Of a stretch of 39,860 bases of DNA, positions 1,070 through 25,487 are shown in pieces. The translations under genes and the position numbers were made by a program. The notes below the pieces were generated by a model that searched no databases, had not been told where the DNA came from, and saw only the letters and a program-made list of their open reading frames with translations. Origin of the DNA: Bacteriovoracia bacterium. GTDB lineage: Bacteria; Bdellovibrionota; Bacteriovoracia; Bacteriovoracales; Bacteriovoracaceae. Where the stretch lies: the NCBI GenBank assembly GCA_046570105.1, contig JBKHVI010000023.1, positions 1 through 39,860 of the forward strand. The letters are read 5' to 3'. Each line of letters opens with the position of its first letter. Position 1 is the stretch's first letter.

Positions 1070-1978
1070 TTAACTCCGAATCTGGTAAAAAATTTCTTCC
1101 AGTGAAGGACGCACTTGTTTTAATCCTTGGATTGAAACTCCTTGGGTCACCAGCTCTTTTAAAAGATTGTCTTTGTTTGATGAGGTTACTTCCCATCGCA
1201 TTAAATCGACATTAAGTTGCTCACGATTCAGTAGAGGCGTTGCAACCTTGTATTCTCCAGAAGGCATGGTAAGCCAATATGACTGGCGAAGGTTATCTGC
1301 CAAAAGCCGATCCACCGAACCATCATAAATCAACTTACCTAAACGTAAGAAGACAACTCGATCGCAAATTTCTTCAACATCTGGGACGATGTGACTGCTA
1401 AAGAAAACTGTTTTCCCTGACTTACGAAGCTCATGCATGATGTCTTTCATCTCCAAGCGACCTATCGGATCTAATCCTGATAAAGGCTCGTCGAGAATGA
1501 CAAGATCAGGTCTATGGAGAATGGTCACCATAAATCCCAGACGCTGAAGCATACCTTTGGAATATGTTCTCAGTGGACGATTGAGTGCATGATCTATATG
1601 AAACTTAGGTGCTTGTTGATTAATTTCTTCTTTGGCCTGCTTACGACTCAGACCTGACAGCTCTCCCATAAAACTAGCAAATTCAAAGCCCGTCAGATGG
1701 GGATAAAAATAGGGTCTTTCTGGTAAATAGCCAATTTTCTCAAACCGAATCGCACCTTGTGGTGTTTTTAGGTTGGGAGTAAATTCAACGCACCCTTTGT
1801 CAGCACGAATAAAATCCAAAATAATTTTGATAGATGTCGTTTTCCCAGCACCATTGGCCCCCAAGAAACCAACCATCGATCCTTCTGGCACACTGAATGA
1901 GACATCATCTAATGCGACAAACGGCGACTTTAACAAATCGCTACGAAAAACTTTGGTGACGCCTCTTACTTCTAGCAT
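1070..1978 (-). CDS. pilH: ABC transporter ATP-binding protein, PilH-like
   Basis: Walker A GANGAGKTT, signature YSKGM, Walker B LVILDEP, H-loop SSH; pil locus context. Confidence 0.85.
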   Translation of the reverse strand: MLEVRGVTKVFRSDLLKSPFVALDDVSFSVPEGSMVGFLGANGAGKTTSIKIILDFIRADKGCVEFTPNLKTPQGAIRFEKIGYLPERPYFYPHLTGFEFASFMGELSGLSRKQAKEEINQQAPKFHIDHALNRPLRTYSKGMLQRLGFMVTILHRPDLVILDEPLSGLDPIGRLEMKDIMHELRKSGKTVFFSSHIVPDVEEICDRVVFLRLGKLIYDGSVDRLLADNLRQSYWLTMPSGEYKVATPLLNREQLNVDLMRWEVTSSNKDNLLKELVTQGVSIQGLKQVRPSLEEIFYQIRS

Positions 1979-9549: not shown

Positions 9550-11200
9550 ACTTTCTCCTGATTTCTTTCTTTAATTCACGAGCGTATTTTCCTTCTAGCT
9601 TTAACTCTTGCACTCCACTTTGTTTACCATATTCTTGACGCATTAGTTTTTGTACAAGATCTAAATAATAAGCTTTCGTTTGTGTACTTAAATGAGAGGC
9701 TTGAATTATTTTTTCCAAGTTATCACTTTCGCCTTGAGCAAGGTGATAAAAGACTTTGAGTAATGACGAATTTGATACTTGCTGGTTCTGCATCACCTTA
9801 ATTTCTTGAACCCATGACTCGTTTGATTTTAAGTTTGGAACGAGTTCTTTTCCCTTCCATGAAACAACAAGAACGATTACTACGGCTAACAAGCTCCACC
9901 AAAAGCTCATTTGAGACCACCAGGCAACAGATTGTAACTCAACAGGTGGATCCGTATTTTTCTTTATATCCGCAACTTCTTGCTTTTCGTTTTTTTGGTC
10001 TTTAGTTGTTGCGATTGTTGGATTGGCAATTCCCGCAACCTTAAGAGAGGGTATTTCCTGCTTAAATGTTTCATAACGATTAGTTTCGGGATCAAAATAA
10101 CTTAACTCAAAGGGAACACTTTTCACTTCACCTGGTGCTTTCCCAAGGTAAGTATATTCAAACGTCTTAATTGCATTCTCGCCACCGACTAAACCTAAAT
10201 CTGACTTTGCATCAAATCTCTCTAATTGGGGAACGTCCCAAAGAGGAGGGGCCTCCATATTCTCAAGATTCCCCGTTCCACTTACTGTTAACTTCGCCTC
10301 AAGGGGTTCGTTTACAAGCAAGTTAGACCTTCCCACCTTGAGTTCAACTTTATGCTTACCAACCAACCCCCTAAAGGATGCAGGTCTACCTACCAAAGGC
10401 AGAGGCTTAACAACTACCTTTACGGGAGCGCTGGAGATTGTACGTGTTTTTAAATCGCGCATTCCAGACCCGAATGCAAAACTTAAATTCCCAAACGGAT
10501 CACTTGTATATGTCGTACTGATGTCCATGGGGTCAACAATGAGTGTTCCTGATTTTTCTGGATATAGTCTCGCTGTATAAATCTGTGATCGCCTAAAGAG
10601 CTCACCATTCACCGAAACACGTTGTGGATTTTCGCTCTCATTTAAGTAGCGTTTCATAAATCCATCTAGCTTTGGATATTTTTTTATATCGAATGATTGC
10701 AAAGTAACTTTTGTATATATGAAATATCTTACTGTTACTCCTTCACCCTCATAGACTTCTTTTTTGGGAACATCCGCTTCCAAGAAAACGACTGTCGGCT
10801 CTTTTCTAGCCTCCAATACATCAATCCCAACCGTAGGCTCTCGAATCGTTTTTCCATCAATCTTAACCACCACATCACGAAGTGATATTCTGCCAACTCT
10901 ATCTGCCCTGGCCTCATAAACGATCAACAATTCACGCTGTGTGGTTAAAGTTCCATTTTGATATATCGTTTTAGTAGAAAGACCCTGAACATGCTTACCC
11001 AGAACATCAAAACCATCGGGCTTAAATGTAATACTTGGCTCGGATGATCCCTTGGTTTGGCACTTGAAAATAATTTGAAAGACTTCGCCTTTTACCGGAT
11101 CCCTTGGGCTAGTCTCAACAACTACGTCATCCTGTCCAAACGCAGAGGACATCATGAATAATAAAGTAATCAAAAGGCAGATGAGATTTCTCATTACCAA
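9536..11200 (-). CDS. BatD family protein
   Basis: Signal peptide, repeated beta-rich Ig-like domains (VYEGE.V.VRY, PL...P..F.G.VG, SGTGNL, YFDPE...Y), C-terminal TM; last gene of the Bat cluster. Start may be 11194. Confidence 0.8.
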   Translation of the reverse strand: MVMRNLICLLITLLFMMSSAFGQDDVVVETSPRDPVKGEVFQIIFKCQTKGSSEPSITFKPDGFDVLGKHVQGLSTKTIYQNGTLTTQRELLIVYEARADRVGRISLRDVVVKIDGKTIREPTVGIDVLEARKEPTVVFLEADVPKKEVYEGEGVTVRYFIYTKVTLQSFDIKKYPKLDGFMKRYLNESENPQRVSVNGELFRRSQIYTARLYPEKSGTLIVDPMDISTTYTSDPFGNLSFAFGSGMRDLKTRTISSAPVKVVVKPLPLVGRPASFRGLVGKHKVELKVGRSNLLVNEPLEAKLTVSGTGNLENMEAPPLWDVPQLERFDAKSDLGLVGGENAIKTFEYTYLGKAPGEVKSVPFELSYFDPETNRYETFKQEIPSLKVAGIANPTIATTKDQKNEKQEVADIKKNTDPPVELQSVAWWSQMSFWWSLLAVVIVLVVSWKGKELVPNLKSNESWVQEIKVMQNQQVSNSSLLKVFYHLAQGESDNLEKIIQASHLSTQTKAYYLDLVQKLMRQEYGKQSGVQELKLEGKYARELKKEIRRKYADS

Positions 11201-12957
11201 TCCTTTTTCTTTGCACCAGTTCTTTTCTGAGTCGAAGTATCGAGCAATTTGAGCTGTAACTTTCTATCATCTTGCTTTAACTGCTCAAGCAGTGGTGAGG
11301 CCTTCGCTCGCTTTTTCTTTTCGTCTCCGCCTTCTGGCTCACCCGGTTCCTGCTGCTCTTTTTTCTCTTCGTTATCCTGTGGACTATCGCTTTTTTCTTC
11401 ACCTTGATCTGTTTTGTCTTTGTCTTTGTTTTTTGGATCAAACGGGTTTTTATTTTCTTTGTTATCCTCACCTTTTCCCTCAGATCCCTCTTTACTCTGA
11501 TCTTTGGATTGTCCACCTTCACCTTTACCACTACTTCCAGAATTCTTTTGTTCTTGATTTTTATCTTTGTCCTGATCTTTGTCTTTGTTTTCGCCACTCT
11601 TTTTGTCTTGTTGCGGAGGAACGAGTGCGCGACGAATGTTCTGTTTCATTTTCTCTACTATCTCAGGTGACAACTCACCACGCTTAGCCAAATCATCAAG
11701 CTTTCCATATTTATCCAAGGCCCCTGGTATTTTTCCAACCTCTAGCTCCGAAGTGGCCCAATTAAAATAGGACTCTTCATTCTCTTTTAAATTTTCACCT
11801 TCCAGATTTTCTTGATAAAGCTTTTGGGCTAAATCGTGTTCTTTGATCTTGATCAATTGGTCAGCTAGATTAATTTTTTCTTGTTGATCGAGTTCACCGG
11901 CCTTTAATTGACTGATTCTTTTCAAGATTTCAGGTGGTATTTCCTTTTTTTCTTCAGCAAATCCTATTCCACTAATAAGTAGTATTGAGAGTGCGAAGGG
12001 CCTAAAGAATCTTAAACCAAACGCTAGACCCATTAAAATTAGTCCAGGAATTGCCCAGCGCTCCATCGCAACAGGCCTAATCACATTCTCGCCTTCCTTG
12101 CTTTCAGCCTTTTTTGAATTTAAGAAGTTAAGTATTTGGTCCGTCGGGAGGTCATAACTTTGAGCAAAGAAATATGTCGCATTTTTTTGATCTTTTACTG
12201 CATTCTTAAAAAAATCTTCATTAAGCTTAGAAATAACATTCACCCCCAAGCTCCGCTTAACACCGTAATACATCCCCGAGTTATCTCTCATGGGAACTGT
12301 TCCACCATCCTTAGTACCAATTGCAACTAGCGCCAAATTTATCCCATCTGGCACCTTGAAGGCTTCTGTGTCTGCATTATCTTCACCGTCAGTGATAACA
12401 ACAATATTTCCAATAACCGTTTTGTCTTTTACATCAAAATATCTTACGGCTTCTTCGATTGCTATTCCGATAGATGTGCCTGCGTTCATATTTCGAAGCT
12501 GTTTTACGCTATCAATCCTGGCATCAAGCAGATCTATGTCAGTGGTAAATGGAACTAGCTTTTTAGTAATATCTGCAAAAACCATTACGCTAACATGGTG
12601 GCCCACTGCTTTTCGTACAAAGTGTTTTGCTACAAGAACGGCTTTTTCTAAACGATTTGGTCTTACATCTTCAACCAACATTGATGTGGATGTATCTATA
12701 AGTAAAATTGTCTTTTCTTGACGTACCTTTCCCTTGATCTTAATTTCTTTTTCTCTAGGATCAAGGGCGACAATCATCACCAAAACTATACCAAGCACCA
12801 AGGCTATACTAGAAAGCTTGTTAATTATTGATCTTTCAAAGAACCAATAATGCTTTACCCATTTAAAAAAACCACTTTCGAGCCAAATATATATTACAAC
12901 TACTGCAATAATAGACGTAATAACCCATGGTAAGTTGTCTAATTGTATGAAGTTCAT
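11194..12957 (-). CDS. BatB/BatC-like fusion: VWA + TM + TPR + charged low-complexity linker
   Basis: MIDAS DTSTS/T/ITDGE, EDVRPNRL, TPR-like helices (ESYFNWA), Q/K/D/E-rich tail ending KKDW as in BatC. Confidence 0.8.
   Translation of the reverse strand: MNFIQLDNLPWVITSIIAVVVIYIWLESGFFKWVKHYWFFERSIINKLSSIALVLGIVLVMIVALDPREKEIKIKGKVRQEKTILLIDTSTSMLVEDVRPNRLEKAVLVAKHFVRKAVGHHVSVMVFADITKKLVPFTTDIDLLDARIDSVKQLRNMNAGTSIGIAIEEAVRYFDVKDKTVIGNIVVITDGEDNADTEAFKVPDGINLALVAIGTKDGGTVPMRDNSGMYYGVKRSLGVNVISKLNEDFFKNAVKDQKNATYFFAQSYDLPTDQILNFLNSKKAESKEGENVIRPVAMERWAIPGLILMGLAFGLRFFRPFALSILLISGIGFAEEKKEIPPEILKRISQLKAGELDQQEKINLADQLIKIKEHDLAQKLYQENLEGENLKENEESYFNWATSELEVGKIPGALDKYGKLDDLAKRGELSPEIVEKMKQNIRRALVPPQQDKKSGENKDKDQDKDKNQEQKNSGSSGKGEGGQSKDQSKEGSEGKGEDNKENKNPFDPKNKDKDKTDQGEEKSDSPQDNEEKKEQQEPGEPEGGDEKKKRAKASPLLEQLKQDDRKLQLKLLDTSTQKRTGAKKKDW
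11300..11615 (-). repeat. Low-complexity coding stretch (KDKD/QDK/EG repeats)
   Basis: Protein reads QDKKSGENKDKDQDKDKNQEQK...NKDKDKTDQGEEK; imperfect ctttgt repeats on the + strand. Confidence 0.75.
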
Positions 12958-13931
12958 ATTGCTTCTCTCAATAGAAGTCTTCTTAGGAACTCTGCCAAAA
13001 GAAATAGCGCTAAGCCTGTCACAAAGAACGAGTAGTAGTGTTCTTCATATATCACTTGGTTTTCAACTTTAATTTCTGTTCGCTCAAGAGTATCGATGTC
13101 TGCAAAAACTCGACTCAATGCTTCCTCATCAGTCGCAGGATAAAATTTTCCACCTGTAAGCGTTGAAATCTCTTTGAGCGTTTTGTAATCAATCGATCCG
13201 CCAGGAATTAATTGATACTGAGTTCCAAACACTGATTTACCAACAGGTATTTTAGCATCATCCTGGCTGCCCACACCTATTGTATAAACTTTGATATTTT
13301 GTTTTTTTGCTTCTTCGGCTGCTTGTAGTGGAGTCATGTTGCCTACGTTTGCAACACCATCCGTCAGCAAAACAATTACTTTGTTTTTCGTATCTGAGTC
13401 TGCTGCACGCGCCACACCTAGTGCTAAGCCATCCCCTAGATTAGTGCCACTACCGAGATACCCAATATCGATATCAGCTATTACTTTGTCTAAGAGCCCT
13501 GGGTCAGTAGATAGTGGCAACAAGGTAAAAACTTTCTCGGAAAAAATGATTAGTCCTACTCGGTCGGTTACACGCTTTTTAGCAAAATCCCTTAATTGTG
13601 TTTTCGTTACTTCTAGACGATTGGGCTTCAGGTCTTCTGCAAGCATAGATCGAGACACATCTACGACAAGAATTATATCAATTACATCCTTACTGGCCGG
13701 GCTATAGGTGTTTGCGGTTCGTGGCTGAGTTAATGAATAACTTAGATAGCCCCAACCAATGAGTCCCACAATAAAAAGAACAATTTTAAGAATGGGTTGC
13801 CATGCACGACGACGGCCTCTTTGAAATCCTAAGCCTAACATTTGCTGGTGAAATAATTTCCAATAGTCTACAGACCAGAGGATGGCAACAAATGCACCTA
13901 ACAAGAAAAGCCATGGTGCTTTATACTCCAT
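12954..13931 (-). CDS. BatA family VWA protein
   Basis: N-terminal double TM, MIDAS DVSRS/GTNLG/LLTDG, EDLKPNRL, IKVYTIGVG, C-terminal TM. Start set at ATG 13931 (MEYKAPW). Confidence 0.88.
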   Translation of the reverse strand: MEYKAPWLFLLGAFVAILWSVDYWKLFHQQMLGLGFQRGRRRAWQPILKIVLFIVGLIGWGYLSYSLTQPRTANTYSPASKDVIDIILVVDVSRSMLAEDLKPNRLEVTKTQLRDFAKKRVTDRVGLIIFSEKVFTLLPLSTDPGLLDKVIADIDIGYLGSGTNLGDGLALGVARAADSDTKNKVIVLLTDGVANVGNMTPLQAAEEAKKQNIKVYTIGVGSQDDAKIPVGKSVFGTQYQLIPGGSIDYKTLKEISTLTGGKFYPATDEEALSRVFADIDTLERTEIKVENQVIYEEHYYSFFVTGLALFLLAEFLRRLLLREAI

Positions 13932-14697
13932 GTTTCTCCTCATCTAATGCAGTTAAAAGCTTACTTTTCGCTACACTTAATTGTGCTAACTCACTTTCAT
14001 TTACATGGGGCTTAAATTGGTAACGATTAAGTTCATCATAAAAAGCACGTAAATTGGATTCATGACCCGCAAAAACTTGCTTCAATTCGTCTCTTTTTAT
14101 CCACAACAAAGCAAATTCTTGGATATTTTGAGCACGAAGAATCTCCTCTCTAAGCTGAATCTTTTTATTCTTTTCAGCTAGGGCCAATCTTTTTGCCTTC
14201 AGTACAATATAAACGAGTCTTCCAAGTACTGAGCTCACAAATATCAAAATTAACAGCGTAAGTGGCCAATTCTTAATCCACCAAGACCGACTAAAAAGAG
14301 GTACATCTTCATAGCTGAATTCTTTAGGAGTCGCTTCCGGACTTGGATTCCAGAGCCAACCTTTGAATTGAAACTGAACAGATCCTTGATCACTGGAATA
14401 GCTGTAGACTTTATCAGGTGAAAAATTTTTTCCAAATACGATTTTCCCACGAAGGCCCCATCCTTCTTTGTTCTTAGTCCACGGCCCTAGTGAATATATA
14501 TAGAACGAATCAGCATCACCAAGAAGTTGTATCGACTTGGGAGTGTAGTTTACGATGACATTTTCATCTCTTGTTTGAATGAGGGTATCTGCAACTTCTC
14601 CAGGCTTAACAGTGGTAGCTTGCTCTACTGGATGCACTTCGAATTGGGCAAATGAGATTCTTGAAATGAAAACCAATAAAAAGAATAACGATTTCAT
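13921..14697 (-). CDS. Bat-cluster membrane protein (signal peptide + one TM)
   Basis: Signal peptide, periplasmic beta domain, TM at about aa 145-166; occupies the usual slot between DUF58 and batA. Confidence 0.6.
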   Translation of the reverse strand: MKSLFFLLVFISRISFAQFEVHPVEQATTVKPGEVADTLIQTRDENVIVNYTPKSIQLLGDADSFYIYSLGPWTKNKEGWGLRGKIVFGKNFSPDKVYSYSSDQGSVQFQFKGWLWNPSPEATPKEFSYEDVPLFSRSWWIKNWPLTLLILIFVSSVLGRLVYIVLKAKRLALAEKNKKIQLREEILRAQNIQEFALLWIKRDELKQVFAGHESNLRAFYDELNRYQFKPHVNESELAQLSVAKSKLLTALDEEKHGV

Positions 14698-15518
14698 TTC
14701 AGTCTCCGGAGAAACTGCTCAAGATATCTTTCATCACTGCTAATCATAGGAAAACGCCTAAGGGCCAATTCTATTTCTCTGGGTTTACTCAACCCCGCTG
14801 TTTTCCCCAGAGCAACCGAGAATGTATATTTTAGGGGTTCAGTATCTAGCGGAGATAACAATCTCATTCCGTGAAATTTGGCATCTTGCGACAGCTGATG
14901 AAATTCTTTTGAGCGCGCCACATTGGCCATATCCCCAAGATAAACGACTTCTTTTTTGCGAGAAAGTTGTTTCTTGAGTTCATGAACAACAGTATTTGGA
15001 TCGTTCTCTTTCAACTCAAACTGTTTCTGGAGATTCACCTTTCCACCTGGCATTAGAAGATTCATTTTTTCAAGCCAGGAAATGAATAGAATAAGACCTT
15101 CCCTCCCTTTTTTGTTCGGAAGTTCATACTTGTTACCATTTTGTAACATTACGATTCGAACCAAATCATGTGTTTCTTGAGCCAGAAGATATAAGAGAGC
15201 ACAAACTTCAAAAGCCATCTGCAGCTTTGTTACACCTGCCGAACCATAGAAACAGGAAGGACTTAAATCGATAAACACACAGATCTCAACGTTTCGGTCT
15301 TCTTCGAATGTCTTTAGATATATATGGGTAGAGCGTGCAGAAACCTTCCAATCAATAAATCTTACATCATCACCATGGGTATAAATTTGGTGATCACGGA
15401 ATTGTAGCCCTGCCCCCTTGAAACGCGAGCGCATGGCCCCAGCCGCAATACTATTCGCATTACGGAATACGGCATGCTGAACTGATGCTACAACTCTTTC
15501 AATTTCTTTGATATCCAT
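14694..15518 (-). CDS. DUF58 family protein (MoxR-associated)
   Basis: SRFKGAGLQF, Y.HGDDVRFIDWKVSAR, KTFEEDR, IDLSPS. Confidence 0.92.
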   Translation of the reverse strand: MDIKEIERVVASVQHAVFRNANSIAAGAMRSRFKGAGLQFRDHQIYTHGDDVRFIDWKVSARSTHIYLKTFEEDRNVEICVFIDLSPSCFYGSAGVTKLQMAFEVCALLYLLAQETHDLVRIVMLQNGNKYELPNKKGREGLILFISWLEKMNLLMPGGKVNLQKQFELKENDPNTVVHELKKQLSRKKEVVYLGDMANVARSKEFHQLSQDAKFHGMRLLSPLDTEPLKYTFSVALGKTAGLSKPREIELALRRFPMISSDERYLEQFLRRLK

Positions 15519-15522
15519 TCAA

Positions 15523-16464
15523 TTAAAGTGCTGAGAGAGCAATCTCCTTAACCAGTTGACGTGTATTTACTTTATCTAATACTGCTTCATAACTTGGAAT
15601 TACACGATGAGCGAGAACAGCTGGCACAACAGAAAGTACATGCTCAGGGGTCACAAAATCCTTACCATCCATAAACGCTCTAAACTTTGCCAATTTATAT
15701 AACCAAATACTTGCTCGCGGCGAAGCTCCTGCCAACAGTATACCCTCGCGTTTTTTGTCAAACCAACGCGTTCCAGGACGTGTCGCATGCACCATACGAA
15801 CAATAACATCTTTGATTTTTTCATCTGCATATATTTTTTCGACTTCAGCTTTAACATTCGCAAAATCTTGTTGATGCAAGACTGGCTTCAGGTCGAGATA
15901 CTCGTGCTTCAAACTTAAAATTGATTTTTCTGCTTCATAGTCCGGATACTCCACATGAACTTTCATCATAAAGCGATCTAGCTGCGCTTCCGGCAAGTTA
16001 TATGTACCCTCTTGTTCAATTGGGTTCTGTGTAGCCAGAACAACGAAAGGTGTGGGTAGACGGTGCGTTTTATCACCAATCGTAACTTGTTTTTCGGCCA
16101 TAGCTTCAAGTAACGCAGATTGAACTTTGGCCGGTGAGCGATTAATTTCATCCGCCAAGACGATCTGCGAAAAGATCGGACCAAACTTTGTCGAGAACTC
16201 TTGCTTTGCCTGATTGTAAATCAGCGTACCGATCAGGTCTGAAGGAAGTAAGTCTGGGGTAAATTGAACTCTTTGGAATTGAAGATCGCAAAGCCTACTC
16301 ATCACTGAAACGCTCATGGTTTTACCAAGACCTGGCATACCTTCAATCAAAATATGACCTTCACAAACCAGTGCAGCCAAGATGGCTTCAAGCATATCAT
16401 CTTGTCCGTATACGACAGATTTCGCTTCTTTTAAGATTTTGTGCATTTTTTCAAGATTCGACAT
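15523..16464 (-). CDS. moxR: MoxR family AAA+ ATPase
   Basis: GHILIEGMPGLGKT, RVQFTPDLLPSD, LADEINR, ATQNPIEQEGTY.LPEAQLDRF, GASPR. Confidence 0.95.
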   Translation of the reverse strand: MSNLEKMHKILKEAKSVVYGQDDMLEAILAALVCEGHILIEGMPGLGKTMSVSVMSRLCDLQFQRVQFTPDLLPSDLIGTLIYNQAKQEFSTKFGPIFSQIVLADEINRSPAKVQSALLEAMAEKQVTIGDKTHRLPTPFVVLATQNPIEQEGTYNLPEAQLDRFMMKVHVEYPDYEAEKSILSLKHEYLDLKPVLHQQDFANVKAEVEKIYADEKIKDVIVRMVHATRPGTRWFDKKREGILLAGASPRASIWLYKLAKFRAFMDGKDFVTPEHVLSVVPAVLAHRVIPSYEAVLDKVNTRQLVKEIALSAL

Positions 16465-16467
16465 TTC

Positions 16468-17664
16468 TTACTCCACTCGTACAAGAACATATTTAATATA
16501 GTTTGCTTTATCATTTAGAGTTCTGACAGGGTGATCCCATCCTTGCATTCCTTGTTCCAAAATTTGAATTGCCCGGCCTTCTTGGCGAGCAGCAATTTGA
16601 ATTGTTTCAAGAAAGGCAGAATAGTCGACATAATGTGTGCAAGAAGCAAAGGCAATGAGCGAATTTTTGTTTGTGATTTTAAGAACTTTCTTATGTAACT
16701 TTTTGTAGCCCTCAATCGCTGCCGCTGTATCCTTTGGCGACTTAGCAAAAGCTGGCGGATCACTCACAATTACATCAAACATTTTCTTCGCTTTGATTGA
16801 ATCATCGAGCCAATCAAAAACATCCTTGCGCTCAAAGAAACCGCGCTCATTAAACAAATTGAGCGCTAGATGCGTGCTCACCATTTCGTTTAAAGGAGCT
16901 TGATCTACAAACCAAACTTCCTTTACTCCCGCCCTGAGAGCGTGAAGGCCCCACGCTCCGCCGTAGCAAAAAAGATCCAGACCTTTTTCTTTTGCGCCTG
17001 TCCATCTTTTCACAGCATTTTCGAATTTCGATCTGTTTTCCCTGTGATCATAGTACCAGCCGTTTTTTTGTAAATTCTTTGCTGGGATTTTATACTTAAA
17101 TTGATTTTCTAATACAGAGAGGTGTTCAAATGGTAACTCTTCTCGATAGTGTGGCAATACTTCGCGACTGCGCTGTTGGGGATGATCAAGAAAGAAACAC
17201 TTCTTTTGAGTGAGTTTTTCTAATAGTTCGCGAATAGTTGTTCGCCATTTATCTATGCCAGCTGTATTCACCTGTATAAGGACTGTATCCTCATATGAAT
17301 CAACAATTAATCCGGGGAGGCCATCAGCCTCTCCAAAGAATAATCTTGATCCACCTTCATATCCTTGAAACATCGCTCTTTTATTGACTGCCATTTCAAT
17401 TTTTTCGCAAATAAATTTTTCAACTGTGTTTTCATCGGGTGGTGAGGTCAGTCTCGTTAGAACTTGCACTGCTGGATATTTGTCTTCTACTAAAGGATTA
17501 GCGAACCCCAGATAAATGCGCTTCTTTTCAACATCTTTAAGCAGAATCCACTCACCTGGTGGTAAGGCTTTGAGATGACCTTCTACTTCTGTTTTAAAAA
17601 GTGAACCACGATCAAATTGAATCTTGTCGATAGCTGCTTTTTTTAATTCTAGTGATTTAAACAT
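16468..17664 (-). CDS. RlmI/RlmK-like class I SAM-dependent rRNA methyltransferase
   Basis: GEADGLPGLIVD, QKNGWYYDHRENR, LDLFCYGG, DVIVSDPPAF, ASC. Confidence 0.85.
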   Translation of the reverse strand: MFKSLELKKAAIDKIQFDRGSLFKTEVEGHLKALPPGEWILLKDVEKKRIYLGFANPLVEDKYPAVQVLTRLTSPPDENTVEKFICEKIEMAVNKRAMFQGYEGGSRLFFGEADGLPGLIVDSYEDTVLIQVNTAGIDKWRTTIRELLEKLTQKKCFFLDHPQQRSREVLPHYREELPFEHLSVLENQFKYKIPAKNLQKNGWYYDHRENRSKFENAVKRWTGAKEKGLDLFCYGGAWGLHALRAGVKEVWFVDQAPLNEMVSTHLALNLFNERGFFERKDVFDWLDDSIKAKKMFDVIVSDPPAFAKSPKDTAAAIEGYKKLHKKVLKITNKNSLIAFASCTHYVDYSAFLETIQIAARQEGRAIQILEQGMQGWDHPVRTLNDKANYIKYVLVRVE

Positions 17665-18493: not shown

Positions 18494-19786
18494 TCAGAGC
18501 AATTCACAGAGCAGTTTTTTCGACTTTTTGTATGTTACCATTCCTGCAGTTCCCGATACACCTCGAACGTTCTTTACTGCTGTGGAAATCACCTCTAATT
18601 CTGATGCGCTGATTCCCGATTGCTTTGCTATGAGAATTGCAGCTTCCTTCAGGTGGCCAGGTGTAGGAACTCCTGATTTTTCTAGTTTGATAATTGCGTG
18701 AGCGCTTGTTCCACTAGAAGCATGAACCCACCAATCATCTGCTTTTGCCCAGTTTTTTCGCATTTGATCATTTCCTTGCGCACTTAAACCTATGGCAATT
18801 TTATACTCATTAAACGAATGAACTTGATAATCACCTTGTTCTGATTTTTTTACTAATTTCTTTTCTACCTCATGCTGTTTCCAATTTGGCCCAATAACCG
18901 TTAGAAGATTTTCAGTTATTTCCGTATTTGTCTCAAGCCGTGTGAGCTCATTCTGGGCCTCCTGAAATCTATTCCTTTGTAGCTTTTCTGCTTCCCTCAA
19001 TCTCTTTATTTGTTCAAACAACCAACTTCTCTTCTGCCAAGGGCTAAGTGCTTTAGGAAATTTGTATTTGAGTTCAAAATGAACAAATTGTGTCTCATTT
19101 TCGTAATTAGTCGGATCATTTTTTTCAACAGTCTCTTGCATGGATTGCCAACGTTCAATTTTAACTAAGTCACCTGCAATCTTAGAGATTTTTGATTTAA
19201 GTGATTTGATTTTTTGCTTAGGTCGAGCTGTTCGTTTTGCTAAATTAAGTTCTTCTTCTAATAGGGTCTCAATTGAAACAACAGATTCGGAACTTACCCT
19301 GTCTTCAACTTTTCGACGTCCTACTTCATCAAATATCTCAAATGAAGCATCTCCCTCTTTGGAAGTTGACCAAGATGTAAACCAGGATTTAGCCTCACCA
19401 TTGTGTAGCGCAAAATAACAATGTCTTCCCACCCACGAAATATAAAGACTATGCACCACCCCGGCCTTCTGGGTTTCCAAAACAATACCTCGGTCAAGAG
19501 GATCCATTTTTATATTCAGTAAGAGAGAGCTTGAGAAATTTTTACGGCACCATTCTAGCCAACGATCTCTTTTTCTAAGAAATGATTGAGGTATTGATTC
19601 ACCTAACCATACTCCTTCACAACCTCCGCCTCGGCCTACATAAATCGAAATATTTTTTCCAGGAACCCTTACTTGAAAGCAAAGATAGCGTGAAGTGGAG
19701 AATATTTTTTGAATATGTCCCGGACGATTGATCGTCTGGGCAATCATCTCCACTTGCTGTTGGATTTGTGAATAGCGTGCTATCAT
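18494..19786 (-). CDS. NFACT family protein (RqcH/FbpA-like), shortened
   Basis: N-terminal IQKI...RK...LDRGIVLE...GRH (NFACT-N-like), central coiled coil, C-terminal NFACT-R (IAIGLSAQGND...DWWVHA...SAHAII...EAAILIA...VKNVR....GMVTY). Confidence 0.8.
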   Translation of the reverse strand: MIARYSQIQQQVEMIAQTINRPGHIQKIFSTSRYLCFQVRVPGKNISIYVGRGGGCEGVWLGESIPQSFLRKRDRWLEWCRKNFSSSLLLNIKMDPLDRGIVLETQKAGVVHSLYISWVGRHCYFALHNGEAKSWFTSWSTSKEGDASFEIFDEVGRRKVEDRVSSESVVSIETLLEEELNLAKRTARPKQKIKSLKSKISKIAGDLVKIERWQSMQETVEKNDPTNYENETQFVHFELKYKFPKALSPWQKRSWLFEQIKRLREAEKLQRNRFQEAQNELTRLETNTEITENLLTVIGPNWKQHEVEKKLVKKSEQGDYQVHSFNEYKIAIGLSAQGNDQMRKNWAKADDWWVHASSGTSAHAIIKLEKSGVPTPGHLKEAAILIAKQSGISASELEVISTAVKNVRGVSGTAGMVTYKKSKKLLCELL

Positions 19787-19795
19787 TTAGTTACC

Positions 19796-22162
19796 ATGAC
19801 TGTGATCAACCATGCCTCTTTTAAAATTCCAGAATGGCCTCAAGTGGTTGAGAAGATCACAGGCTACCTCTTCTTTGATTGTAACAAAGAACGATTAGCT
19901 GTGGATGACTTAGCTTGGTCAGCAAAATCAATTGAGCTCTCTTTTGATCGTTTGCAATTCTTTCAAGAATACTTAATTGATGAATATGCTCATACATTCT
20001 CTTCTCTTCTCAACCCACTTGATCCACAGGTTTCACTGCCTGATTTAGTAGGGCATGTTACCAAGGCAGGTTTTCTTGGGATTAGAGATCAAAATAGACT
20101 TATTCTTTCTTGGGAAGCAGCGTTGCATCTCGCCAAGGCCAGTTCAAGACATCATCTAAATCCCACCACTGGTATTCTTGGTCAGACACAAAAAACTGAC
20201 GTAACCAAGTTCCTTAAGGATTTTCGTCATCTCATTACAAAAGATGGAGAAATTGATTACAGCCGCCATCCCGAATTACAGATTTTAACATCACAACTCT
20301 ACGACCAAGAAGAAAGACTAAGGCGAATGGCCCAAGAACTTATTCGATCCGAAGAGTGGAAGTCTATTCTTCAATACGAAGGGTTTGATGTTCTCGATGA
20401 AAGATATGTTTTACCTGTTAGAACTGATTCTCACCGCACTGGTTTAGGTTTAATTATTTCGCGATCCGAATCAGGACACACTCTTTTTGTCGAGCCATAT
20501 GCCTGCCGAGACCTTTCTCAAAAGCGCCTAGAAACACTTTCCAAGATCAAAGAGATTACTTATCAAATTGAATCATCGTTTCATAAAAGATTGGTTGGTC
20601 TTGCTACCGAAGCAGCCGAAGCAGTAGAAGCTTTACTGCTATTCGATGAATATTTGGGAAAATCTAGATTCTGTCTCGCAATGGGGTTTTCGAGACCCAA
20701 AATACGAGACCGTGCGGGCTTTGCATTTCATGATCTCTTTCATCCATTAATAAAAAATCCTGTTAAGAATGACGTGTATATCGACAACACTCAAACAGCT
20801 CTCGTTATCTCAGGCCCCAATACTGGTGGCAAAACAGCTTTGTTGAAAGCGATAGCTCTTTCTTATCAACTTTACTTACGCGGACTTTTTGTACCCGCTC
20901 TCCATGCAGAACTTTATCCGTATCAAACACTGTTCTTTCTCGCCAATGATTTGCAAGACATTGGTATGGGATTAAGTTCATTTTCCGGTGAGGTTACAAC
21001 CTATTTGGCATTGTCTGAAAAGCTACAAGCACACAATCTCTTACTTATTGATGAGATCTTCAATTCAACAGCATCAGATGAAGCATCCGCTCTCGCACTT
21101 TCTATGATTGATAATTTTAATTTAAGAAAACAAACCCATTTTGTTCTTTCGACTCACCATCAACTCCTTAAGAACTTAGCAGGCGAAAGACCTACGGTTC
21201 TCTCTGGATCCATGGGCTTTGACGTCAGTGAAATGCGACCTAATTATCGCTTTTATCAAGGTGTACCAGGCCAATCAATGGCAATTGAAATTTTCGAGCG
21301 CTTAGCTGAAACAAATCCCTATGGAAAACTCATCGGTGAGGAAGCTCGGAGCCTTCTAGATAAAAAACAAGTGAACTATGAAAAACTAGTTCAACAGGTC
21401 GCTCAAAAAGGTCGTGAAATTGACGAACTTCTCCAAGCTAACAGGCTTAAAGAGCGAGATCTGATGAATCGCGAAAAATCTCTAGAGGGCCTTATGCGCT
21501 TACGAATGAATGACGAACTGACTCGTGCCAAAGAAAGGATAGATCAGATCACTAAAGATGCTATGGAAGTTTACGAACAAGCGAAGGCTGGCGAAATTCA
21601 AAGACCACGAAGAGCCGAAGACAAATTGAGCGATCTCAAAAGGCATCTCGACAAAGAATTTGGTGAAGCTCCCGCTTCAACAAACAATGAAGCAGATAAT
21701 CCAGCTGATTTATTGCCTGTGCATCAATTACGACCTGGAAATGTTTATTTCAACACTTTTTTGAAAAAGGAAGTGCAACTTCAAACGATTGATTGGAGAA
21801 AGCGCCAAGCAGTCGTAACGAAAGGTGCTCTAACCGTCAACGTACCGCTTAATACATTTAAAAAAGGGACTACCGTTGTAAATTCCTTTCAACAAATCCG
21901 CATAAGTGTAAGCAGAGAATCTGATCGCTCTTTCATACTTGATTGTCGCGGAATGAGACTCGAAGAATTTCAGCACGCAGTAGAGAAGGGTCTCGGTGAC
22001 TTGCTCTCCGGCGATACACCTGTTCTAAATGTTGTCCACGGTCATGGCGATGGTGTCCTAAAAGCTTGGCTTCGAGGACACATCGGTAAAAGTAAGGATT
22101 TTCGTTGGGACACGCCCGAAACGGGTAACGACGGTGAAACAGAAATTCGCCTTAGAGACTAG
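19796..22162 (+). CDS. mutS2: MutS2 family protein with C-terminal Smr domain
   Basis: RYVLPV, SESGHTLFVEP, HPLI, Walker A SGPNTGGKT, LSSFS, Walker B LLIDE, STH, GVPGQS, coiled coil, KOW-like region, Smr LDCRGM...VVHGHGDGVLK. Confidence 0.92.
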   Translation: MTVINHASFKIPEWPQVVEKITGYLFFDCNKERLAVDDLAWSAKSIELSFDRLQFFQEYLIDEYAHTFSSLLNPLDPQVSLPDLVGHVTKAGFLGIRDQNRLILSWEAALHLAKASSRHHLNPTTGILGQTQKTDVTKFLKDFRHLITKDGEIDYSRHPELQILTSQLYDQEERLRRMAQELIRSEEWKSILQYEGFDVLDERYVLPVRTDSHRTGLGLIISRSESGHTLFVEPYACRDLSQKRLETLSKIKEITYQIESSFHKRLVGLATEAAEAVEALLLFDEYLGKSRFCLAMGFSRPKIRDRAGFAFHDLFHPLIKNPVKNDVYIDNTQTALVISGPNTGGKTALLKAIALSYQLYLRGLFVPALHAELYPYQTLFFLANDLQDIGMGLSSFSGEVTTYLALSEKLQAHNLLLIDEIFNSTASDEASALALSMIDNFNLRKQTHFVLSTHHQLLKNLAGERPTVLSGSMGFDVSEMRPNYRFYQGVPGQSMAIEIFERLAETNPYGKLIGEEARSLLDKKQVNYEKLVQQVAQKGREIDELLQANRLKERDLMNREKSLEGLMRLRMNDELTRAKERIDQITKDAMEVYEQAKAGEIQRPRRAEDKLSDLKRHLDKEFGEAPASTNNEADNPADLLPVHQLRPGNVYFNTFLKKEVQLQTIDWRKRQAVVTKGALTVNVPLNTFKKGTTVVNSFQQIRISVSRESDRSFILDCRGMRLEEFQHAVEKGLGDLLSGDTPVLNVVHGHGDGVLKAWLRGHIGKSKDFRWDTPETGNDGETEIRLRD

Positions 22163-24200: not shown

Positions 24201-24788
24201 TTATGCCTTGAAACCTTTCCCGATGACAAAAAATTCTTTCGACACAGAACGTGTCGATTTGGGACGAAGATACTGAAAATCCGCAAATTTATCTTTTTGG
24301 GCTTTCAAGAAAACCTGCGCATCATTGCTCTCGAAAACTTTTATTACAAAGTTTCCATTGGGCCTGAGTAATATTGGAAGCATACCAAAGACTGACTCAA
24401 TCAAATCGAGACTGCGAGCTTGATCTACTGTTTTAATTCCTGTGGTCTTTGGTGCCATATCAGACAAGACCACATCGAAAGGTCGCTCAACACCTAGGTC
24501 GGCTGGAGATTTAAGTTCGAAGATATCTTTCTCAAAAAGTACCAAATTTGGGAGCTGAAGTTTCTTATTCACCGGCTGAATATCAATTCCCACGACTTTA
24601 CCCGCAGAACCAACCTTGGGAGCAGTATACTGTGCCCATGAACCTGGAAAATAGCCTAAATCGACAACCAGATCGCCCTTTTTCAATATCTTAAAGCGCT
24701 GATCGATCTCCTCCAGCTTATAAACTGACCGGGCCAAGTAATTCTCATCCTTGGCTTTCTGATAATAATGATCTTTAACTTTAAACAT
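24201..24788 (-). CDS. rlmE: 23S rRNA Um2552 2'-O-methyltransferase (FtsJ family)
   Basis: DHYYQKAK..YLARSVYKL, VVDLG..PGSW, VLSDMAP, FVIKVF, STR..SKE (K-D-K-E tetrad). Start set at ATG 24788 (MFKVKDHY). Confidence 0.93.
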   Translation of the reverse strand: MFKVKDHYYQKAKDENYLARSVYKLEEIDQRFKILKKGDLVVDLGYFPGSWAQYTAPKVGSAGKVVGIDIQPVNKKLQLPNLVLFEKDIFELKSPADLGVERPFDVVLSDMAPKTTGIKTVDQARSLDLIESVFGMLPILLRPNGNFVIKVFESNDAQVFLKAQKDKFADFQYLRPKSTRSVSKEFFVIGKGFKA

Positions 24789-24839
24789 GGTCGGAACATG
24801 CCAGAGTGGGCCAAACTTTGGCAACCCTAGGAGTGAAAA

Positions 24840-25487
24840 GTGAAAAAACAGGATAAAGCGCCTGAAATCTATCGTCGCCTGACGAAGGCTTTTCCCGACG
24901 CTCACTGCGAATTAAATCACGAAACTCCCTTTCAGCTTCTGATTGCCACAATTCTCTCTGCTCAATGTACCGATGTAAGAGTCAATATGGTCACGCCGCT
25001 GCTTTTTAAGACCTATCCTACTCCTGAAAAATTAGCACTGGCAGACCAACTCTCGGTAGAAGAAATTATTCGCTCAACAGGTTTCTACAAGAATAAAGCA
25101 AAAAATATAATTGGCTGTGCTCAAGCTTTAGTTACTCATCACAAGGGACAGGTTCCTCAATCAATCGAAGAACTCGCGGCACTTCCGGGTGTGGGAAGGA
25201 AAACGGCCAATGTCGTACTGAGCAATTGCTTTGATATAAATGAAGGTGTTGTTGTCGATACGCACGTTAAAAGAATTAGCAATCTCTTGGGGCTCACCAA
25301 GGAAGAAACGCCTGAAAAAATCGAAGTCGATCTCATGAAACTTTTCCCTCAGAAAAATTGGGGAATGCTAAGCCATTTAATGATTTTTCTTGGGCGAAGA
25401 ACTTGTATTGCCAGACGTCCACAATGTGATCTTTGTGTATTACTAGATCTCTGCCCGTCTAAGTTAAAAAAGTCTCGCGCAAAATAG
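24840..25487 (+). CDS. nth: Endonuclease III
   Basis: LLIATILSAQCTD, HhH LPGVGRKTANV, VDTH, Fe-S motif C-X6-C-X2-C-X5-C; GTG start with SD AGGAG. Confidence 0.96.
   Translation: MKKQDKAPEIYRRLTKAFPDAHCELNHETPFQLLIATILSAQCTDVRVNMVTPLLFKTYPTPEKLALADQLSVEEIIRSTGFYKNKAKNIIGCAQALVTHHKGQVPQSIEELAALPGVGRKTANVVLSNCFDINEGVVVDTHVKRISNLLGLTKEETPEKIEVDLMKLFPQKNWGMLSHLMIFLGRRTCIARRPQCDLCVLLDLCPSKLKKSRAK

Follow-up and report, generated by a model that had tools for sequence, protein, structure and literature searches.

The closest described counterpart of the locus reported here is the bacterial pathway of ribosome-associated quality control (RQC) in which MutS2 acts first and RqcH acts after it (PMC11633108, PMC10897456). 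The two proteins also occur together: 97% of the genomes with RqcH have MutS2, and of six genomes from the phylum Bdellovibrionota five carry rqcH and five carry mutS2 (PMC11633108). Physical linkage of the two genes is not mentioned in the available text of PMC11633108 and PMC10897456, as judged by a word search, and an analysis of bacterial NFACT gene neighbourhoods by Burroughs and Aravind in 2014 gave no conserved association (PMC4075521). Here we describe a stretch of 39,860 nucleotides (nt), called the window throughout, from a genome of the family Bacteriovoracaceae in the same phylum (GenBank GCA_046570105.1, contig JBKHVI010000023.1; our genome G000, 88% complete, contig C23). In this window mutS2 and a gene for a short homologue of RqcH, hereafter the NFACT gene, stand head to head with only 9 nt between their start codons. 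The two genes probably form a linked module for the rescue of collided ribosomes, each gene having its predicted promoter within the first codons of the other. We regard it as a trimmed form of the known MutS2-RqcH pathway, not as a new kind of system. The adjacency sets the window apart from B. subtilis, where we take rqcH and mutS2 to be unlinked. Phyletic co-occurrence of the two proteins was reportedly also described by Cerullo et al. in 2022. Such reports resemble the present case in placing these two proteins in a single pathway; they differ in that they concern co-occurrence in genomes, whereas here the genes are physically linked.

On the plus strand the junction between the two genes reads CAT, TTAGTTACC, ATG (Table 1). 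An earlier note on this DNA had placed the starts 9 nt apart with this spacer between them, which the open reading frames (ORFs) and the junction sequence confirm exactly; it had also held that there is no space for an intergenic promoter or Shine-Dalgarno (SD) sequence, and the 9-nt gap bears this out. No earlier start is possible for either gene, because in-frame stops lie upstream of both ATGs. On the minus strand a TAA stop stands immediately before the ATG of the NFACT gene (0 nt), and on the plus strand position 19796 is the earliest mutS2 start after an in-frame stop. The note had further considered that the true starts might lie well inside the ORFs. This is not so, since both N-termini are conserved among relatives from Met1 onward (MIxxY in the NFACT protein, MxLNLL in MutS2 of the CATG genera described below) and the domain alignments begin close to the starts: residue 2 of the NFACT protein pairs with residue 2 of a solved NFACT-N domain in the structure alignment, and residue 12 of MutS2 pairs with position 8 of the model TIGR01069. 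A misassigned start in one or both genes, and hence a wider gap, could be argued from the in-frame GTG codons at mutS2 codons 3 and 21 and from GTG or ATG at NFACT codons 12 and 14. Most relatives have no alternative start nearby, the conservation from Met1 extends across genera, the NFACT-N fold requires residues 2 onward and the TIGR01069 alignment begins at residue 12; we therefore consider wrong starts extremely unlikely.

The head-to-head arrangement is conserved in the family. Among 20 loci from 41 relatives, 19 have mutS2 adjacent to the NFACT gene and divergent from it, and 33 family junctions, from 18 genera, were read in these 19 and in 14 further loci. Ten of the junctions belong to the genus of the window, with a gap of 9 nt in nine and 8 nt in one. 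Both start codons share a single CATG in 21 loci from 16 other genera, and in two loci of one genus (g33) the starts abut as CATATG. It is this conservation that goes beyond chance: in 33 of 33 family junctions there are at most 9 nt between the starts. The pair is embedded in a family-wide syntenic block with the order PBP (penicillin-binding protein), signal peptidase I, mutS2, then divergently the NFACT gene, a secreted protein, an RlmI-like gene and MoxR.

Linkage of the two genes extends beyond the family. We scanned a phylum sample of 151 genomes, which gave NFACT profile hits in 81 and TIGR01069 matches above cut-off in 83, and compared the coordinates by eye. Within the family of the window (f1), 19 of 23 NFACT-positive genomes have the divergent adjacent pair; one of the others has the genes on two contigs, three have no MutS2-level hit, and one further genome (G170) has neither gene. 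All 15 NFACT-positive genomes of a second family, f4, carry the two genes as a tandem on the same strand, NFACT first and mutS2 after it (loci L045-L047 and 12 more); at L045 the gap is 15 nt, as confirmed by the ORFs. Families f23 and f24 provide one divergent pair each, with gaps of 19 nt and about 44 nt respectively, and the NFACT gene of f24 is preceded by an SD sequence. The finding of the same two neighbours in differing arrangements argues for selection on their linkage. The earlier note had called for a synteny survey of relatives, and this survey shows the adjacency to be conserved, both in the family (19 of 20 loci, 19 of 23 genomes) and through linkage in three other families. The head-to-head arrangement likely couples the expression of mutS2 and the NFACT gene.

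Another arrangement was seen in family f21, where the NFACT gene is divergent from an operon that consists of an isochorismatase-domain gene, an intervening gene and mutS2. In genome G116 of this family (locus L044, 1972..3200) the isochorismatase-domain gene and a 205-aa (amino acid) gene with no Pfam hit separate NFACT from mutS2, and both are apparently in one operon with mutS2.

The identity of the NFACT protein rests on its profile, its fold and its alignment to B. subtilis RqcH (YloA; 7AQC, 7AS8, 7OPE, 8S1U), which is its best match in both sequence and structure. Pfam NFACT-R_1 scored 32.8 bits, just over the cut-off of 29.8, and the Pfam scan gave no match to NFACT_N. A profile built from 17 family sequences aligned to B. 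subtilis RqcH (7aqc) with an E value of 3e-19 over the coiled coil and NFACT-R; in a weak N-terminal stretch of this alignment D98-R99 falls onto D97-R98 of RqcH (LDRI), the residues that are needed for the selection of tRNA-Ala (PMC8373112). An AlphaFold (AF2) model of the protein has a mean pLDDT (predicted local distance difference test) of 89, and its best Foldseek matches are RqcH, NEMF and Rqc2. With VIA-align, residues 2-158 of the model superimpose on residues 2-167 of the PavA N-terminal domain (6pon_A; Z 14.6, root-mean-square deviation (rmsd) 3.1 A, 148 residues aligned), and residues 319-430 on CCDC25 (7eoe_A; Z 13.2, rmsd 1.9 A); the match to NEMF (3j92_u) has a Z of 11.9. Between these domains the model contains two helices, residues 191-228 and 249-286, with strands at 233-242. 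Eight residues are invariant in the 17 sequences (G333, N339, D340, R343, D351, W353, H355 and H363), and all of them lie in NFACT-R. Its similarity to B. subtilis RqcH thus covers three parts: NFACT-N, where the fold agrees and Asp-Arg occupies the corresponding position; the coiled coil, with a small hairpin in its middle; and NFACT-R, where Asn-Asp, Asp-x-Trp-x-His and His are conserved. The earlier note had called the minus-strand gene RqcH/NFACT-like and its partner mutS2, and the profiles, Pfam matches, fold matches and B. subtilis alignments agree with both names. Some family members are also named "predicted RQC complex YloA/Tae2 family protein" by JGI (Joint Genome Institute).

The NFACT protein differs from B. 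subtilis RqcH in being shorter, 430 aa against 570, with a shorter coiled coil. The published core architecture of NFACT proteins comprises NFACT-N, a helix-hairpin-helix (HhH) domain, a coiled coil with an M hairpin, and NFACT-R (PMC8373112, PMC4075521). Residues 128-295 of RqcH are matched by 50 positions (124-174) of the family profile, which leaves a shortfall of about 117 residues. The model has a helical linker of 31 aa (aa 159-189) where RqcH has an HhH domain of about 115 aa, and of the 255-residue crystal chain 6pon_A, which contains NFACT-N and HhH, only residues 2-167 align to it. Since the HhH domain is missing from the core architecture, the protein is an HhH-less variant of RqcH/NFACT. 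A search for homologues with the family profile returned 55 proteins, nearly all from Bacteriovoracaceae, and is uninformative on HhH-less forms elsewhere. The nearest clusters in a feature search of the ESM Atlas are NFACT proteins of about 440 aa from Campylobacterota (score 0.98). They are alike in length, and we take them only as a lead that short forms exist outside Bacteriovoracaceae. They differ in their company: Campylobacteria mostly carry an RqcH-RqcP pair (PMC11317155), whereas no RqcP was found in the window genome.

The plus-strand gene is identified from its sequence as a full-length MutS2. Its product matched Pfam MutS_V with 59 bits and Smr with 38.6 bits, and the best match among solved structures is B. 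subtilis MutS2 (7qv3_v; E 9.5e-50, residues 139-782). Compared with B. subtilis MutS2/RqcU (7QV3, 8QPP) the protein has nearly the same length, 788 against 785 aa. The two share the ATPase of MutS domain V, including both Walker motifs, A and B (positions hand-counted on the translation), and at the C-terminus an Smr domain in which DxR and HGxG are present; a candidate KOW-like segment lies before Smr. It is the N-terminal 130 residues that are divergent. The Smr motifs pair with DLR and HGxG of the B. subtilis protein at an identical spacing of 32 residues. Residues ~644-690 align to the B. subtilis KOW region; PF20297 (MutS2/Smr-associated SH3) was unreported here at an E value of 0.01 and was reported at this threshold in a relative from family f23.

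For some MutS2 proteins a role as a recombination-suppressing Smr nuclease was the first to be described. If the MutS2 of the window likewise acted on DNA, its neighbourhood with NFACT would have nothing to do with ribosomes, and the name of the TIGR01069 model, "endonuclease MutS2", fits such a role. However, the Smr motif is DxR and not the catalytic DxH, the HGxG motif together with the KOW-aligned region are the elements for binding collided ribosomes, and the linkage to NFACT is kept in four families. In B. subtilis MutS2 the DxR and HGxG motifs of Smr serve ribosome binding and not cleavage (PMC10897456). Together, these observations make a role on DNA very unlikely, and we continue with MutS2 as a ribosome-splitting factor.

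Because at most 9 nt separate the starts, all promoter elements of each gene lie in the coding sequence of its partner. No SD-like core precedes the ATG of NFACT or of mutS2; by comparison, 777 of 1745 crude gene starts in the window genome (44.5%) have one. We estimated the identity of synonymous codons from nine sequences of the genus, leaving out locus L002 as near-identical to the window. Over mutS2 codons 1-70 this identity is 0.48-0.67, against 0.24-0.47 in 33 later windows of the gene, and all seven first windows lie above all 33 later ones. In the NFACT gene it is 0.66 over codons 1-10 and about 0.35 over the rest. This constraint supports promoters embedded in the partner gene, as do the predicted extended -10 elements, one for each gene, that the constrained parts contain (Table 1). 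That for mutS2 is antisense to the first NFACT codons and is conserved in the genus as GTGnTAtCAT in the DNA alignment; it predicts a transcription start site (TSS) near 19793 and a leader of about 3 nt. The element for the NFACT gene was also picked by a promoter scan (hit 19905..19878), and eight of the nine genus sequences retain TAnnnT as its hexamer, even when the overlapping codon has changed from Cys to Ser. From it a TSS near 19871 is predicted, with a leader of about 85 nt that would be antisense to the 5' end of mutS2. A structured NFACT leader was considered and dropped, since the putative 85-nt leader folds no better than shuffled sequences (z -0.28). Rfam gave no family at gathering score anywhere in the window.

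The window genome contains a clearly distinct class of apparently leaderless genes. Of 1745 crude genes, 137 (7.85%) have TAnnnT exactly 6 nt upstream of the ATG, compared with 0.6-2.3% at neighbouring spacings and 0.9% at 11237 internal ATGs. The 137 genes share a -35 TTG, a G at -14 and a pyrimidine at -1, and only 11 of them have an SD-like core. The same 6-nt peak appeared in a 400-kb sample of a relative of the CATG type (G013; 17 of 246 genes). Among the 23 CATG or CATATG loci of the family, counted by hand, TAnnnT precedes the mutS2 ATG by 6-8 nt in 13 loci from 12 of the 17 genera (by exactly 6 nt in 8 loci), and the NFACT ATG by 7-8 nt in 12 loci from 9 of the 17. Such hexamers fit leaderless transcripts or transcripts with leaders of 1-2 nt. 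Among the papers listed by a literature search, none is on leaderless mRNAs in Bdellovibrio, as far as their titles and the first lines of their abstracts show. A further gene of the window, 1070..1978 on the minus strand, misses the 6-nt class by one nt, with CATAAT 7 nt upstream of the ATG; the distance to its divergent neighbour is 36 nt.

A number of observations weigh against a dedicated rescue module or narrow what it can be, and they are taken here in turn. The first set concerns the linkage. The family loci are related, and their counts are not independent. Two genomes of genus g9, G018 and G153, as well as G050 have an intact NFACT gene and no MutS2-level hit. At the locus of G018 (L019, G018:C3:484063-488268) mutS2 is cleanly absent, and the NFACT gene lies 5 nt after signal peptidase I, at the usual place of mutS2. 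With the NFACT gene kept in two sister genomes after a clean loss of mutS2, the coupling of the two genes is not obligatory. Across the phylum sample the pair is unlinked in 40 NFACT-positive genomes, either on separate contigs or with 18 kb or more between the genes; this set includes 9 genomes of family f9, several of them single-contig. Nor do we claim that a 9-nt gap is rare. A longest-ORF gene call of the window genome gave 445 divergent pairs, 54 of them with an apparent gap of at most 9 nt; the median gap was near 100 nt. The call is crude and over-long ORFs inflate the 54, and it suggests that tight divergent spacing is apparently not rare in this compact genome.

From these observations it could be argued that the adjacency is inherited synteny in a compact genome, that the two genes are expressed independently and that the 9-nt gap or the CATG overlap is mere streamlining. 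The whole block from PBP to MoxR is syntenic across the family, and the pair may simply ride along with it; the number of tight divergent pairs and the 40 unlinked genomes point the same way. This explanation has to contend with three arrangements in four families (divergent overlapping, divergent with 19-44 nt, and tandem), with a synonymous constraint that is found exactly in the parts of the genes that face the partner, and with the fact that both proteins work in one pathway elsewhere. On balance we judge passive synteny to be unlikely.

The second set of observations concerns the proteins. The MutS2 of the window scored 374.3 bits against TIGR01069 (model positions 8-790 of 790) and did not reach the cut-off of 400; other MutS2 proteins of the family mostly score 406-456, above the cut-off, with 355 in genome G020. 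In the NFACT protein the HhH domain is absent, and the Asp-Arg motif is not invariant: 12 of the 17 family sequences have DR, two have DK, one has YR and two have other residues. HhH helps to hold the tRNA in RqcH (PMC8373112). Nor did we find a cofactor with an S4 domain. The Pfam S4 hits in the window genome, at the completeness given above, are a TlyA-like protein, uS4 and three ORFs resembling pseudouridine synthases (S4-hit ORFs of 210-359 aa), with no small S4 protein of the RqcP/Hsp15 type. Five family genomes that are at least 99% complete have no S4 match in any open frame shorter than 210 aa. YlmH_RBD was found in none of five genomes (the window genome and four family genomes), while the B. 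subtilis control matched. These negative results hold for the queries used, and a divergent cofactor may be present. As neither an RqcP nor a YlmH partner was found, Ala-tailing by the short protein can only be inferred.

This leads to the alternative that the short NFACT protein is no Ala-tailing enzyme at all and only binds or marks 50S-peptidyl-tRNA complexes; it may, for example, hold the tRNA for release by Pth or ArfB, or block rejoining of the 30S subunit. The missing HhH domain, the missing RqcP/Hsp15 (S4 search, six genomes) and YlmH (YlmH_RBD search, five genomes), and the variation of DR in 5 of the 17 family members all favour it, as does a divergence that is much faster than that of MutS2 (about 57% identity within the genus, against about 85%). 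On the other side, NFACT-N, the DR motif, the coiled coil and NFACT-R are all retained, with residues that are invariant across the 17 sequences. In addition, the nearest clusters in the feature search, the ~440-aa proteins of Campylobacterota, are a lead from a group that mostly has the RqcH-RqcP pair (PMC11317155), and short forms may therefore be active. A marking-only function is in our view possible but somewhat unlikely, and we keep to a short RqcH that probably adds a tail.

The third set concerns the transcripts. Seventeen sequencing runs were listed as containing this DNA, and none of them is on record as RNA; the overlapping divergent or leaderless transcripts that the earlier note proposed are predicted from promoter signals and synonymous sites. 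The mutS2 gene of the window has TATCAT at 9 nt, off the 6-nt leaderless signature of its genome, and a C at -1. Upstream of the NFACT gene the range of 5-9 nt is free of TAnnnT; CATGGT stands at 6 nt, and the base at -1 is an A. In the CATG genera the NFACT hexamer stands at 7 nt, a spacing that is not enriched genome-wide in either the window genome or G013, and coding constraint could explain this hexamer, because it coincides with the conserved NLL codons of MutS2. In bacterial leaderless mRNAs the -10 element is placed such that transcription starts with the A of the ATG. The mutS2 and NFACT genes both resemble this class in having no SD sequence; they differ from it in the 9-nt spacing at mutS2 and in the lack of a correctly placed TAnnnT at the NFACT gene. 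Strictly leaderless mRNAs for both genes of the window were therefore rejected, given spacings of 9 nt and none against the 6-nt signature of the genome. What we retain is a mutS2 mRNA that is predicted to be near-leaderless, and a leaderless pair may occur in the CATG genera.

With these points taken into account, the linked rescue module would work as follows. By analogy with B. subtilis, the Smr and KOW regions would let MutS2 bind to collided ribosomes, the leading one of which it would split by means of its ATPase. The short RqcH would come next, binding the 50S-peptidyl-tRNA complex and probably tailing the nascent chain with Ala. In the window, mutS2 would be transcribed from the extended -10 element in NFACT codons 1-3, with a leader of about 3 nt and SD-independent initiation, and the NFACT gene from the extended -10 element in mutS2 codons 28-31, with its longer leader of about 85 nt antisense to the 5' end of mutS2. 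In the CATG genera, -10-like hexamers 6-8 nt upstream of both ATGs would give leaderless mRNAs or mRNAs with leaders of 1-2 nt. Of all this, the gene identities and the linkage have good support; that the trimmed protein adds Ala tails, and how the transcripts are built, is what we infer.

A more far-reaching version would credit Bacteriovoracaceae with a minimal RQC, in which MutS2 serves as the splitter and an HhH-less RqcH tails or marks without an S4 cofactor. The two genes would be wired by the palindromic CATG as a "double start", with each -10 element in the first codons of the partner. Leaderless or near-leaderless, mutually antisense transcripts would arise from one shared and mutually exclusive site for RNA polymerase, which would set the ratio of the two products. 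Leaderless mRNAs are read by 70S ribosomes, and the pair could for this reason be translated when normal initiation is compromised. We consider this version, taken as a whole, doubtful at best.

Read as a rescue module, the locus matters in three ways. Linkage in three arrangements in the phylum supports the MutS2-to-RqcH pathway outside Firmicutes with independent evidence from genomes. The short RqcH is a natural "deletion mutant", without HhH and with no RqcP or YlmH found, and gives a direct means to test on which parts tRNA recruitment and template-free elongation depend. The overlap of start codons over 16 genera, together with the leaderless class, is a compact natural case of back-to-back promoters embedded in coding sequence.

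Table 1. Position of the genes, domains and predicted signals of the mutS2-NFACT locus in the window
Feature	Position	Strand	Basis or remark
Short RqcH/NFACT homologue gene (P0001), 430 aa	18494..19786	minus	ORF; start CAT at 19784-19786
NFACT-N domain, aa 1-158	19313..19786	minus	VIA-align, profile
Asp98-Arg99 of NFACT-N	19490..19495	minus	profile alignment to RqcH D97-R98
Coiled coil with small beta hairpin (CC/M), aa 190-290	18917..19219	minus	secondary structure of the model
NFACT-R domain, aa 319-430	18497..18832	minus	VIA-align, Pfam
Spacer of 9 nt, TTAGTTACC, between both start codons	19787..19795		
mutS2 (P0002), 788 aa	19796..22162	plus	ORF; start ATG at 19796-19798
MutS2 ATPase core	20813..21055	plus	alignment to B. 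subtilis MutS2
Walker A, aa 340-347	20813..20836	plus	alignment to B. subtilis MutS2
Walker B with D419-E420	21038..21055	plus	alignment to B. subtilis MutS2
Smr domain, aa 715-787, D716-C-R718 and H748-G-H-G751	21938..22156	plus	Pfam Smr, alignment
Predicted extended -10 for mutS2 (TG-n-TATCAT)	19778..19786	plus	antisense of NFACT codons 1-3
Predicted extended -10 for NFACT gene (TGT-TACAAT)	19878..19886	minus	inside mutS2 codons 28-31
Secreted-type protein, 278 aa	17671..18507	minus	signal-peptide-like N-terminus; likely start ATG at codon 8
RlmI-like methylase	16468..17664		two genes downstream of NFACT gene; NCBIfam 23S m5C1962 methyltransferase, 178 bits, below cut-off

The ORF for the secreted-type protein lies directly downstream of the NFACT gene, a position that is conserved across the family, and it has no match in Pfam or NCBIfam. 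The RlmI-like rRNA methylase that the earlier note had pointed out two genes downstream of NFACT is indeed present and syntenic. Nothing ties it to rescue, however, because the secreted protein of unassigned function intervenes before the NFACT gene.

Two other parts of the window deserve mention. A gene for an RlmE/FtsJ-like 23S rRNA methyltransferase (24201..24905, minus strand) and a divergent ORF (24840..25487, plus strand) have an apparent 5' overlap of 66 nt; the overlap is taken from the longest ORFs, both with GTG starts, and the true starts may lie further in. The RlmI-like gene is followed on the same strand by genes for a MoxR AAA ATPase, a DUF58 protein and a VWA protein and by one unannotated gene (11194..16464, minus strand), a set that resembles an operon of the Bat/MoxR type.

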